A DNA stretch of 40,772 nucleotides from a virus (Duplodnaviria; Heunggongvirae; Uroviricota; Caudoviricetes), in the IMG/VR virus record IMGVR_UViG_3300028456_000002, positions 1-40,772 of that record; one strand, 5' to 3'. This document shows, piece by piece, positions 22,735 to 34,778 of this stretch. The translations under genes were made by a program, and so were the position numbers. How positions within the stretch are numbered: the stretch's first letter is position 1; each line of letters opens with the position of its first letter. Under the pieces are notes generated by a model that did not search any database, had not been told where the DNA came from, and saw nothing but the letters and a program-made list of their open reading frames with translations.

Positions 22735-22809
<75 letters not shown>

Positions 22810-22812
22810 ATA

Positions 22813-22888
<76 letters not shown>

Positions 22889-27763: not shown

Positions 27764-27919
27764 TTACTCCTCAGATTCGTAAGCTGTGAAGACAGCGACC
27801 TCCGTCTGGCCGGTTCGGATTCGTACCTCGCAGAGGTCTTTCCTCGTTACCAGTGCCGTCACTATGACGGTTAAACAGATGACGATCAGGGCGATTAACA
27901 TCGCCTTTTGCTGCTTCAT
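27764..27919 (-). CDS. hok: Hok/Gef family type I toxin (HokD-like), inside an N-terminally extended mok frame 27764..27976
   Basis: MKQQKAMLIALIVICLTVIVTALVTRKDLCEVRIRTGQTEVAVFTAYESEE, 51 aa, single TM helix, near-identical to chromosomal Hok proteins; the 70-aa in-frame upstream extension corresponds to mok. Confidence 0.85.
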   Translation of the reverse strand: MKQQKAMLIALIVICLTVIVTALVTRKDLCEVRIRTGQTEVAVFTAYESEE

Positions 27920-28199
27920 AGCCTGCTTCTCCTTGCCTTTCGGCATGTAAGAGGCTAACCTACATGTGCAAAGCATGAAATTGGCCTCAGATTAATGTTA
28001 AGCGTCTTGCCGGACGCGTAATGTTAACTGGGGCTTTTCTCTATCTGCCGTTGGTGTTCATGCCTGAGACAGATAGCCTCAAGCACCCGCAGCAATTCTA
28101 CTTAACTATCCTTTTCCCGCAAATCGTTTTTATCCCCAGCGGCAAATCGAATACACCACCAGCGCCACTGCCATCGCGATTCCTACTGTTGTGAATGCC

Positions 28200-32064: not shown

Positions 32065-32730
32065 TCAAACAAAACCAGCCGCTTTCCGGCGTTCATATTC
32101 CTGTTTCAGCAACTCAATTGGCGTTGGCCCCGACGGGCGTTTGGGGGCCGCCAGTTGTCGCCGGACTGGCGGAACGCTCAGGCCGTTACTAACATGCTTT
32201 GCCCATTTCGTCAGTTGCCGTTCTGCAAGCCGTTTTAATTCCCCTTCGGTCATCTGGCGCTCAATCCCCTTTGAACGCATCTCGAGGCAAATGTGATACA
32301 GCACAGGCTGAGACCACGGGTACCTATCACTTCCGTCGTATCGCCAGGACTCATTGCGCCAGCGGCGGTACTCCTCCATCACAGCATCCACCGTCAGACC
32401 GAATGGATTGGCTCCGCTTTCCGAAATCAGTGCCACAAACTCAGCCAGGTCCGGAGGCCATGTTTCACCCGCCCGGCAGCGGTCCATGCACTGGCGGCAG
32501 ACCTGCCGGATTTGCTGCTCAGTCATCGCGCCAATCTGTGCAATCCAGAGCTTCGAAGGTGCGGCCCCGTTCTTCTGGGTCCAGCGGTTCGAATAAACCT
32601 CCCCCATGAGTTCCCACAGCTTCCAGGCCGTTTCCGTCGCTGATAAATCCGTTTTCACGTTCCCACTGCTCACGTGCTGCCCGAATTTCCTGAACTGCCC
32701 GTGATGCGGTGCCACCTGGTGCTGCTGCAT
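32065..32730 (-). CDS. Replication protein P-like (helicase loader)
   Basis: 221 aa; ...GAMTEQQIRQVCRQCMDRCR... and ...YPWSQPVLYHICLEMR...ELKRLAERQL... align with lambda P from memory. The 5' end overlaps the O-like gene by about 210 nt, so the start is uncertain. Confidence 0.7.
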   Translation of the reverse strand: MQQHQVAPHHGQFRKFGQHVSSGNVKTDLSATETAWKLWELMGEVYSNRWTQKNGAAPSKLWIAQIGAMTEQQIRQVCRQCMDRCRAGETWPPDLAEFVALISESGANPFGLTVDAVMEEYRRWRNESWRYDGSDRYPWSQPVLYHICLEMRSKGIERQMTEGELKRLAERQLTKWAKHVSNGLSVPPVRRQLAAPKRPSGPTPIELLKQEYERRKAAGFV

Positions 32731-33559
32731 GGTTTACCCCTTTGCTGACTGGTTTAACCTGCGCCCTGACGTGATTTACGTGACGGGCGAATTTCTGCTC
32801 CCACTGAATCTGCGTAAACACTTTCCCCTCCGCTGCCCAGTAGTCCCGGAAGGCGGCAAGTTCAGCAGGTGTAAATTCTGTCTCCGGCAAAGCCATCCCC
32901 CACAACGCAGCCCGTCGTCGAAAATCCCGTGACGGATACCAGCTATCGCTCATCGGGAATTTTCCGATGGGTTCGCTCAGGCCATCCAGGAATACAGGGG
33001 GGGCTGCCTGTAACGACAAAACCTCCTGCTCACTGGTCGGAGCACTCTCGCGTGCGTTATGTGTGGGGTTTAGATCTTTGGGTTCCTTTGGGTTCCGTGA
33101 TCCGTTTTTGGGTGTCTTTGATGGAAAATTTGGGTGTCTTTGGTTATTTTCCATGCAGCTAAGAGTTCCGTTTTTGGGTCTGTTTTGTGCTGAAACATAA
33201 CCATTTTCGGTACTGTTTTTATTAACAGCACCAATTTTACCCACCTTTAAAGACTCCCGTTTTTGGGTGTATTCAGGCTCGGCAACACTTTCTTCTACAC
33301 CGATAAGTCGGTACACCACAATTTGCTTTGTTTTGCCTTTTCTCTCACCGGTATCAACAATTAACCCAATCTCCATCAGGTGTCGTAAGCTGTCCTGCAC
33401 AGTCTTTTTGTTCAGTTCCGTTACTTCTGCCAGTGCAGATACAGACGGGTATGCACACAAATCGGCACCGCACATATCAGCAAGCCAGGTCAATACAGAC
33501 TTACTGGATGAACTGCCGGTTTTCACCTTTTTAGCCCATCGTAGTGCATCGATACTCAT
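32519..33559 (-). CDS. Replication initiator (O-position) with N-terminal HTH and C-terminal DnaT-like region
   Basis: ORF 32519..33634; likely start MSIDALRWAKK...; central low-complexity PKNG-rich linker encoded by the iteron repeats. Confidence 0.7.
   Translation of the reverse strand: MSIDALRWAKKVKTGSSSSKSVLTWLADMCGADLCAYPSVSALAEVTELNKKTVQDSLRHLMEIGLIVDTGERKGKTKQIVVYRLIGVEESVAEPEYTQKRESLKVGKIGAVNKNSTENGYVSAQNRPKNGTLSCMENNQRHPNFPSKTPKNGSRNPKEPKDLNPTHNARESAPTSEQEVLSLQAAPPVFLDGLSEPIGKFPMSDSWYPSRDFRRRAALWGMALPETEFTPAELAAFRDYWAAEGKVFTQIQWEQKFARHVNHVRAQVKPVSKGVNHAAAPGGTASRAVQEIRAAREQWERENGFISDGNGLEAVGTHGGGLFEPLDPEERGRTFEALDCTDWRDD
33072..33272. promoter_or_regulatory. Candidate origin of replication: iteron-like repeats inside the O-like gene
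   Basis: At least five copies of (C)CGTTTTTGGGTGTCTTT-like units (33099, 33125, 33166, 33255, plus TTTGGGTTCC doublet at 33072) followed by an AT-rich stretch; lambda ori has the same in-gene layout. Confidence 0.55.
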
Positions 33560-34082
33560 ACGAACCCCTGGCAGACATTTGTTTATCTGCAAAGTAATAT
33601 TGATATTGCTGACGATACGCATGCTTGAAAGCAATAGCTTTTTCTATAAGCTCGTCAGTCTCACGTTCCACAACAGATGGATCCGCAAAAAGCAGCCCAG
33701 ACTCCACCACATCGCCATATTCTTTGTTTAATCCGGCGATCATGTACGTAATGCTTTTTCCATCACTGATCTCACGATACAACCTGAAATCACTAATTCG
33801 GATAGCCTCCATAATTGCCGGAATCAGCGCCGTGAATTTTTTCCGCTTATCCCTGGTGTCGATAGCTTTCCAGCGTTCGAATATCTTCACCCGGTTAACG
33901 CCCAGCGCCCGTTGATCAACCTCGCCATCATTAAACGTGACGCGTTGAACATCGATGTTCGGGCGTTCTTTCAGAGCCCAGAATGCTTCCGTGATTAATA
34001 TCGTCGCCTGCTCCTGTGTCATTCCTGGTCGGCACACCCAGGCATCCAGAGCCTCACAAACCTGTTCAGGGGTGATTTTCAT
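33531..34082 (-). CDS. YdaT-like protein (cII-position gene)
   Basis: 183 aa immediately downstream of the Cro-like gene; resemblance to Rac YdaT is from memory only. Confidence 0.5.
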   Translation of the reverse strand: MKITPEQVCEALDAWVCRPGMTQEQATILITEAFWALKERPNIDVQRVTFNDGEVDQRALGVNRVKIFERWKAIDTRDKRKKFTALIPAIMEAIRISDFRLYREISDGKSITYMIAGLNKEYGDVVESGLLFADPSVVERETDELIEKAIAFKHAYRQQYQYYFADKQMSARGSYEYRCTTMG

Positions 34083-34293
34083 TGTTCAACCGCCCCGCCC
34101 GCTTTGCCTTACGATATTCGTCATAAACTTTGGGGTCGTACTGAAGTTCCCCGCCGGATGCCTCTTGCAGGCGCATCGCGCGACCTTCAGGAACCAATTC
34201 CCCCCATTGAGAAACAGCAGATGGATCAACACCAGCAGCTTTCGCTACTTTGGCTTTCGTCCCATAAAAATTAATTACGTCTGATTTAAACAT
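34066..34293 (-). CDS. dicC: DicC-like Cro-type regulator
   Basis: ORF 34066..34320; ...LVPEGRAMRLQEASGGELQYDPKVYDEYRK.KRAGRLNNENH matches DicC from memory; divergent from dicA. Confidence 0.8.
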   Translation of the reverse strand: MFKSDVINFYGTKAKVAKAAGVDPSAVSQWGELVPEGRAMRLQEASGGELQYDPKVYDEYRKAKRAGRLNNENHP

Positions 34294-34370
34294 CACCCCT
34301 CCAAAGTTGAGTTTTCTCAATAGTAATCACTCAAGGAATCTCAAGTCAAGGGTTATTAAGATATCTAAAT

Positions 34371-34778
34371 ATGAACGAGAAAACTTTAGGTCAACGAATT
34401 AGAGAAAGACGCAAACAGGTTGGTTTAAGTCAAAACGATTTAAGCAAAGCTGCTGGCGTATCTGGCTCATCAATTTCACTATGGGAAAGCGACCATACAG
34501 CCCCGCGCGGGCAAAATTTGCATCGCCTGGCTGAGGTATTGCAATGTTCACCAACTTGGATACTGTTTGGTGACGAGGATAAAACACCAGATCCACCAGT
34601 TGCACTCAACAGCGCCTTAGACTTATCGGAAGATGAGTTGGAGATGTTGCGATTGTATCGCGCACTTCCAAAATCAGAGCAGCAAGCACAAATCAGCGAA
34701 CTCCGTGCCCGCGTTGAGAATTTTAATCGCCTATTCACCGAGCTACTAGAAGCTCGCAAACGTAACAAACATCAATAA
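34371..34778 (+). CDS. dicA: DicA-like repressor (HTH, XRE family)
   Basis: 135 aa; ...NLHRLAEVLQCSPTWILFGDEDK... and ...ELRARVENFNRLFTELLEARKRNK closely match DicA from memory. Confidence 0.9.
   Translation: MNEKTLGQRIRERRKQVGLSQNDLSKAAGVSGSSISLWESDHTAPRGQNLHRLAEVLQCSPTWILFGDEDKTPDPPVALNSALDLSEDELEMLRLYRALPKSEQQAQISELRARVENFNRLFTELLEARKRNKHQ

Follow-up and report, generated by a model that had tools for sequence, protein, structure and literature searches.

In the lambda paradigm of replication initiation, an O-some forms on the iterons of the origin, the adjacent AT-rich DNA is unwound, and DnaB is delivered through P (PMC7466680). The lambda origin lies within the initiator gene itself, as direct repeats midway along the gene, in the part encoding the linker that joins the N-terminal DNA-binding domain to the C-terminal domain. 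We examined a stretch of DNA with the same arrangement, a lambda-like E. coli prophage of 40,772 nucleotides (IMG/VR record IMGVR_UViG_3300028456_000002, positions 1 to 40,772; hereafter the window). Its minus strand carries an array of direct repeats at 33075-33273, inside a replication initiator gene that occupies the position of lambda O. An earlier reading of this DNA, made from the letters alone (the sequence-only reading), had taken the repeats for lambda-style iterons and hence for the likely origin. Our comparisons support that proposal, and every sequence-level prediction that was tested held: the array very probably comprises the binding sites of the initiator and the core of a theta-type replication origin of the prophage.

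The likeness to lambda extends beyond the place of the repeats. In both phages a P-family gene follows directly downstream, and the initiator gene has the same early-operon place after cro and the gene in the cII position. The lambda unit (TCCCTCAAAACGAGGGA) and the window unit (ACACCCAAAAACGGGA) share one design, with a C-rich arm, an A-tract ending in C and a G-rich arm, and both arrays include an AAATT variant copy (AAATTGG in lambda). However, the two systems are not identical. The annotated lambda iterons (TCCCTCAAAACGAGGGA, TCCCCTAAAACGAGGGA, TCCCTCAAATTGGGGGA and TCCCTCAAAACAGGGGGA) are four sites at 20-24 bp, with a strong AT-rich tract directly after the last of them, whereas the window has four to six sites over 200 bp, 22-44 bp apart, and lacks such a tract. 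Lambda O is a member of PF04492, whereas the window initiator scores below the threshold for that family and has a DnaT-like C-terminal part unlike that of lambda O.

Other phages offer further precedents. In phage L, six imprecise repeats of TGTCCAACGGA inside gene 18 were read as the likely origin, and the iterons bound by the initiators of lambda, P22 and L differ from one another and lie in each case within the initiator's own coding region (PMC8022706). The gene 18 origins of P22 and L were inferred from sequence, the same kind of inference as is made here, and the phage L unit TGTCCAACGGA resembles the Acinetobacter-type unit AGTCCCAACAACGG of the family described below. However, the P22 and L initiators are paired with a DnaB-type helicase (gene 12) and not with a P-like loader. 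The Shiga toxin (Stx) phages 933W and P27 have six lambda-type iterons, some of which bind weakly and are needed all the same (PMC7466680). Like the window, both are lambdoid prophages of E. coli whose iterons number more than four, and they provide a precedent for arrays with weak or variant copies, although they differ in having true lambda-type O proteins and iterons and an adjacent AT-rich region.

Three other systems resemble the window in part. Over residues 161-346 of the window initiator, a part that contains the DnaT-like domain, identity to the ydaU initiator of Rac-SA53 is 87% for protein and 90% for DNA, and both genes overlap the gene downstream, which in Rac-SA53 is named ydaV. 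However, the N-terminus of the Rac-SA53 protein is unrelated, and its gene contains one core match at chance level and no repeat family of more than two copies. In the Eru8 and Eru11 replication units of Stx phages, the gene for an HTH_36 protein comes after a YdaT-like gene, beside cI (PMC8951638). This is the gene order of the window, the likeness being drawn from the published description only; the Eru units are treated there as being without O and P, with no origin or iterons described, whereas the window module has a P-family gene and a lambda-style layout. Finally, iteron plasmids (RepA/RepE/pi) combine a winged-helix initiator with direct repeats of ~17-22 bp about two helical turns apart, and they have in common with the window a possible role for single-stranded DNA (ssDNA) binding at the unwinding element (PMC4081077). 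Those plasmids have a Rep_3 protein with tandem winged helices, iterons beside the rep gene, DnaA boxes, and initiation with DnaA and DnaC. In contrast, the window has no Rep_3 match, intragenic iterons, only one-mismatch matches to the DnaA box, and a P-type loader.

The repeat array

The array consists of four canonical copies of AAnACACCCAAAAACGG, a recurrent variant (ACCCAAATTTTCC), one decayed copy and two part-copies of 10 bp, all in one orientation on the coding (minus) strand of the initiator gene. The gene, the array and its units are as follows; frames are reading frames of the cores, and matrix scores are explained below.

32519-33559, minus strand: replication initiator gene in the position of lambda O, 346 amino acids (aa), ATG at 33559
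33075-33273, minus strand: iteron array, proposed initiator-binding part of the origin, coding for linker residues ~96-160
33252-33273, minus strand: iteron I1, AATACACCCAAAAACGGGAGTC; core 33268-33257, frame 0; matrix score 28.8
33231-33242, minus strand: I2, decayed copy, GGGTAAAATTGG; aligns with the second iteron of the EPP-1 family
33196-33217, minus strand: iteron I3, AACAGTACCGAAAATGGTTATG; core 33212-33201, frame 2; matrix score 18.2
33163-33184, minus strand: iteron I4, AACAGACCCAAAAACGGAACTC; core 33179-33168, frame 2; matrix score 29.1
33123-33140, minus strand: iteron I5, variant, AAGACACCCAAATTTTCC; core 33135-33123, frame 1
33097-33118, minus strand: iteron I6, AAGACACCCAAAAACGGATCAC; core 33113-33102, frame 2; matrix score 24.7; the best conserved copy
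33075-33096, minus strand: two tandem 10-bp part-copies, GGAACCCAAA

The 18-mer named by the sequence-only reading, CCGTTTTTGGGTGTCTTT, is the plus strand of the unit, and on the coding strand it reads AAAGACACCCAAAAACGG. Allowing up to 3 mismatches, AAAGACACCCAAAAACGG had 3 matches in the window, all at 33102-33274, where shuffled sequences gave an expectation of 0.03. We also built a weight matrix of 22 nucleotides (nt) from 53 sites of relatives only, leaving the window out, and used it to scan both strands of the 40.8-kb window. The four highest scores anywhere in the window belonged to I4, I1, I6 and I3, all within 177 bp, and the next highest was 9.4. The enrichment of the 18-mer and the position of the top four matrix hits show that the repeats are real. 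The rest of the window, a search of which had been proposed as a check on the repeats, was without the motif: there was no second repeat cluster, and the matrix scan did not find the motif in the cI-cro operator region. The earlier count of five or more copies over about 200 bp stands if variant and partial copies are included; counted strictly, there are four canonical sites.

The less regular copies have counterparts in relatives. The I3 subtype, TACCGAAAACGG, is also present in them, and I5, which matches the canonical unit in its left half only, occurs as the same variant at the same relative place, where relatives have CCCAATTTTGG or the inverted-looking CCCGTTTTTCC. The core-to-core spacings from I1 to I6 are 26, 30, 33, 44 and 22 bp. 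The values 33, 44 and 22 are all divisible by 11, which would place the A5 tracts of the four downstream copies on one face of the helix. No Rfam family matched in or near the array. GATC (Dam) sites at 33073-33076 and 33099-33102 flank the last iteron, I6, and an AGATCT just past the array is shared by several enterobacterial relatives, though not by every one. These sites might be connected with methylation or with control by SeqA.

Constraint on the DNA and co-variation with the winged helix

Edwardsiella phage EPP-1 and ten further relatives among the enterobacteria have arrays that align collinearly with that of the window. The winged helix of EPP-1 is 71-75% identical to its window counterpart and the C-terminus (Phg_2220_C) is unrelated; at the matching position, EPP-1 has 5-6 copies of the AAAGACACCCAAAAACGG unit. 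We examined the wider family by scanning one genome per species, which identified related N-terminal domains at 46 loci, in Enterobacterales, Acinetobacter, Desulfovibrionaceae, methylotrophs, Roseibium and others; 44 of these were long enough for the repeat scan. All 44 of these proteobacterial relatives (27-80% identity) have a repeat cluster at the same position, with at least 4 copies in 37. In the 300 bp after the part that codes for the winged helix, the median was 5 copies of some 11-mer (range 2-8), compared to a median of 1 and a maximum of 3 in 420 windows drawn from these loci as controls. The recurring spacing in the family is 17-18 bp and then 22-24 bp.

The repeat units differ among these relatives together with the protein. 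Most relatives that keep the DTGERKG-TKQV wing have units of the CCCAA(A/C)AACGG type, in the form ACACCCAAAAACGG in Enterobacterales and AAACAGTCCCAACAA in Acinetobacter. Relatives with other wings and recognition helices have unrelated units (GCGCCCCCGAAC, GGGTGTCACCCTGACACGG, CAGTGCCAAAAGTGGCAC, GGTAGTCTCACCATGAGA and, in nine copies, TAGGGAAAACCATACCGGT), many of which are dyad-symmetric. At the sequence level, therefore, the repeat consensus changes as the winged helix diverges.

Within the gene, the repeats are conserved as DNA. The cores of I1, I3, I4, I5 and I6 are read in frames 0, 2, 2, 1 and 2, and one DNA word is translated in four ways, as TQKR, RPKNG, HPNF and TPKNG. We compared pairwise identity among 11 enterobacterial relatives and found core values of 94% for I6, 87% for I1 and 78% for I4, against 59% for the spacers between iterons and 45% for third codon positions in the adjacent winged-helix domain. 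The stretch CCCAAAAACGG of I6 was invariant in 11 of 11 sequences. The presence of the cores in three frames, together with their conservation above that of third codon positions, points to selection on the DNA and not on the peptide.

The initiator, its alleles and its neighbours

Two domains are recognizable in the initiator, one on each side of the segment that the array encodes.

33290-33559, minus strand: N-terminal winged-helix DNA-binding domain, residues 1-90 (AlphaFold2)
32759-32971, minus strand: DnaT-like ssDNA-binding domain, residues 197-267 (PF17948)

AlphaFold2 modelled residues 1-90 with a predicted local distance difference test (pLDDT) score above 90, as four helices and a beta-hairpin wing. 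Residues 91-179 were modelled as unstructured (pLDDT 51-60), and the array, at codons ~96-160, lies inside this segment, in agreement with the earlier claim that repeats within the O-position gene encode its linker. The DnaT domain PF17948 was matched at 61 bits (cut-off 25, E = 9e-17), with a weak match to RP-C, and residues 194-270 matched the solved C-terminal domains of DnaT (6aep, E = 1.7e-19; 9zbt, 3.6e-18; 4ou6, 5e-18).

All Foldseek matches of the N-terminal model were to generic regulators with a winged helix (MarR, ArsR, TFE, PerR); a specific initiator was not among them. Against HTH_36 (PF13730), the window protein reaches 20.8-22.2 bits, just under the cut-off of 25. However, all 41 aligned relatives match this family (best E = 4e-14), and relatives 51-80% identical bear the precomputed PF13730 label. 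Through homology to members that pass the threshold, the N-terminus is thus best placed with the HTH_36-type winged helices. We rejected membership in the lambda O family: the window protein reached 12.8 bits against PF04492 (Phage_rep_O; threshold 28.7), only 10 of the 41 family members gave any match (best E = 0.017), and a BLASTP comparison of the initiator with lambda O was not significant. A distant winged-helix kinship to lambda O may exist. Pfam scans of the initiator gave no match to Rep_3.

Comparison with Rac-type initiators places a joint at the downstream edge of the array. Homology to the ydaU initiators, whose N-terminus is different and whose genes lack such repeats, begins at 33079-33052, at or just 3' of the part-copies. 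On the other side of this joint, the C-terminal domain varies with the downstream partner: a DnaT-like domain occurs with one P subtype, Phg_2220_C pairs with another, more lambda-like P subtype, and family members with a DnaB-type helicase downstream have a C-terminus without a recognizable domain. In these sequence comparisons the winged helix and the repeats are one inheritance unit, and the C-terminus and its partner are another. This division is what one would predict for a protein that recognizes the repeats through its N-terminus and recruits the helicase machinery through its C-terminus.

The copy number of the 10-bp element GGAACCCAAA differs among near-identical E. coli prophages, and only the two-copy form, as in the window (346 aa), stays in frame. 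One copy is found in NZ_CP074874 (locus L136:1360-1380), where the gene is annotated as a helix-turn-helix protein plus a DnaT-like pseudogene, and three copies in the P0004 alleles give an open reading frame (ORF) of 170 aa. In the P0002 alleles an extra A in AAACCCC leaves 167 aa. At several loci (L006:3001-3701, L007:311-1011, L008:3001-4017 and L046:1419-2449) the initiator is present as two ORFs, with their junction within the array or just past it; one example, of 126 aa and 107 aa joined by ATGA, is identical in two independent metagenome samples. These could be real split genes or inherited frameshifts. A Klebsiella locus (L004) and a metagenome locus (L005) have frameshifts at A-runs that may be sequencing errors, and they were not counted as split genes. 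Homology searches with an N-terminal query of 92-97 aa returned only proteins of up to 174 aa, from which it had seemed that split initiators dominate. We dropped this idea as a length bias of the search because, on direct inspection, 67 of 73 close IMG/VR relatives were full length (345-346 aa).

The module is common in E. coli. It was found at a coverage of at least 80% in 907 of 5,426 complete genomes, including O157:H7 and O145:H28 strains, and the initiator is annotated only as a "DnaT-like ssDNA-binding domain-containing protein". The protein is 98.8% identical to the "phage replication protein" of PPompW phages, and the region 32519-33634 shares 99.3% identity with PPompW prophages from strains that produce Shiga toxin.

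The genes and the candidate promoter around the initiator are as follows.

34371-34778, plus strand: CI-like repressor gene
34320-34349, minus strand: promoter-like site TTGACT-18-TACTAT between the cI-like and cro-like genes, candidate equivalent of pR, from a consensus scan only
34066-34320, minus strand: P22-Cro-like gene
33531-34082, minus strand: YdaT-like gene in the cII position
32065-32730, minus strand: lambda-P-like helicase-loader gene (PF06992), start uncertain, 32730 or 32607

The scan for promoters and terminators gave counts no higher than in shuffled sequences, and only the promoter-like site on the cro side was noted. The P-like gene matched PF06992 at 60.5 bits (cut-off 26, E = 2e-16, residues 56-188), and its product was 25% identical to lambda P in a BLASTP comparison (E = 9e-7) and aligned with the P protein of EPP-1 (E = 3e-16). 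The gene seems to start well upstream of the start annotated in related records. Both the Pfam match and the alignment with EPP-1 P begin at residue 56 of the long ORF from 32730, and this ORF is also open in loci L004 and L009-L012. The P-like gene overlaps the 3' end of the initiator gene in another frame, by at least 89 nt if it starts at 32607 or by 212 nt if it starts at 32730.

Elsewhere in the prophage, 27914-28088 (minus strand) matches sok, the antitoxin RNA of hok/sok-type toxin-antitoxin loci, over the full length (Rfam RF01794, 112 bits), and two adjacent tRNA genes lie at 22738-22809 and 22816-22888 (minus strand; Rfam RF00005, 65.6 and 63.6 bits).

The proposed origin and its alternatives

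If replication of this prophage follows the lambda paradigm, from which we take the binding of the initiator, the unwinding and its site, and the recruitment of the helicase, initiation might proceed as follows. After derepression, leftward transcription from the cro-side promoter would run through cro, the ydaT-like gene, the initiator gene and the P-like gene, and so across the array. The N-terminal winged helix would bind the direct repeats, with their CCC-A5C-GG(G) cores, and form a wrapped, O-some-like complex. Wrapping would strain and open a nearby stretch of low stability, the best candidate for which lies inside the array:

33211-33250, no strand assigned: least stable 40-mer in the gene, candidate unwinding element, GC content 0.30, free energy -47.0 kcal/mol

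The C-terminal part of the initiator, including the DnaT-like domain, may then hold the opened strand, contact the P-like protein, or do both, and the P-like protein would deliver the host DnaB. The stretch 33211-33250, which ranks at the window's 98th percentile in a nearest-neighbour stability profile, overlaps with I2 and with the beginning of I3.

Several observations weigh against this interpretation. The repeats are spaced more loosely than is usual in the family, and with one copy decayed the origin may be weakened. A clear CCC/GGG dyad is present in I1 only (CCC-AAAAAC-GGG); I4 and I6 have just CC...GG, and the dyads of relatives, such as TCCCAAAAACGGGA, GTGCCAAAAGTGGCAC and TCTCACCATGAGA, are clearer. 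There is no lambda-like AT-rich tract after the last iteron, the 60-bp windows over the 3' flank of I6 having a GC content of 0.47-0.53. The AT-rich element that is present is weaker than that of lambda (-47.0 vs. -43.0 kcal/mol per 40-mer) and lies between the repeats, where several relatives have more iterons and not AT-rich DNA. Finally, the frameshifted alleles of close relatives, some of them altered within the array, show that the module is sometimes dead.

The alternative that survives best is that the repeats are winged-helix sites for control only, serving autoregulation, handcuffing or the exclusion of related phages, with the origin elsewhere, for example at 33573-33612. This stretch is the least stable 40-mer of the neighbourhood (-45.9 kcal/mol) and lies outside the array, upstream of the initiator gene. 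Extra copies of iterons also mediate inhibition in plasmids and in lambda (PMC4488673, PMC3349717), and truncated alleles with only the winged helix and linker exist. However, both functions are served by one set of sites in lambda, which is the closest analogue. Furthermore, 33573-33612 falls in the ydaT-like gene, for which relatives have unrelated genes instead; the array, by contrast, is never separated from the winged helix, and the window holds no other repeat cluster. We therefore consider a purely regulatory role improbable.

It is very improbable that the repeats serve a different protein (a CI/Cro-type repressor, a YdaT-like or CII-like protein, DnaA, IHF or terminase) or are a junction sequence prone to recombination. 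The array does end at a mosaic joint, its 10-bp part-copies vary in number, and GATC sites flank I6. However, it stays with the HTH_36 domain whatever lies upstream (YdaT-like, Phage_CP76 or other genes) or downstream (a P-like gene or a DnaB helicase). Its motif is absent from the operator region, and in 32900-33700 the DnaA box is matched only with one mismatch, never exactly, and an IHF consensus is absent. Nor would junction sequences co-vary with the recognition helix across phyla-wide relatives. The weakest alternative, that the repeats are a by-product of a low-complexity linker with a PKNG or TQKRE-like peptide repeat and have no function as DNA, is rejected: although the segment does code for a repetitive, disordered peptide rich in Lys, Pro, Asn and Gly, and the unit of a distant relative (L051) is 18 bp and hence in frame there, it is contradicted by a DNA unit read in three different frames, by spacings of 17 or 22 bp (no multiple of 3) in most relatives, by conservation of the cores far above synonymous sites, and by the persistence of the array across a gene junction or non-coding gap in relatives with a split gene.

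The origin interpretation can be extended to the family as a whole, although we regard the combined proposal as improbable. The HTH_36 winged helix and the array might form a portable "origin-specificity cassette" across Proteobacteria, mounted on interchangeable C-terminal adaptors (DnaT-like, Phg_2220_C and others) that match different helicase or loader partners. In the window, the DnaT-like domain might provide an ssDNA hand-off to P-DnaB resembling that of the restart primosome. The slippage-prone array (1, 2 or 3 units of 10 bp, and A-runs) might then act as a switch to a stand-alone iteron-binding protein that could repress or exclude related phages.

One related record offers a lead on autonomous replication. 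An entry of 8,461 bp that was deposited as a circular plasmid of E. coli (NZ_CP148379.1, 1-8461; locus L137) contains nothing but cI-like, cro-like, ydaT-like, initiator and P genes, a DUF5677 gene, a defence-like ATPase with an HNH endonuclease, hokD and rem, with no other replication gene listed. It may be a natural plasmid driven by the module, similar to lambda-dv, or an assembly artefact, since the same DNA is a chromosomal prophage in E2348/69 and other strains; we treat it as a lead only.

To read intragenic repeats as an origin is standard for lambdoid phages; the result is not surprising to a specialist and involves no new kind of mechanism. A full-text search of the literature for the repeat in either orientation returned only unrelated primer and barcode matches, and a search for iterons in combination with DnaT or HTH_36 yielded no account of the origin proposed here. 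A 2022 survey of the replication regions of Stx phages stated that nothing was known about replication of the non-lambda types (PMC8951638). Pinning the probable origin to 33075-33273, in a lambda-style layout, provides a concrete fragment for ori-plasmid and binding tests, and it would explain why the N-terminal half of the initiator and the repeats move together in mosaics. It also suggests a rule for annotation: a scan of the 300 bp after the HTH_36 domain may locate the origins of many prophages across Proteobacteria.

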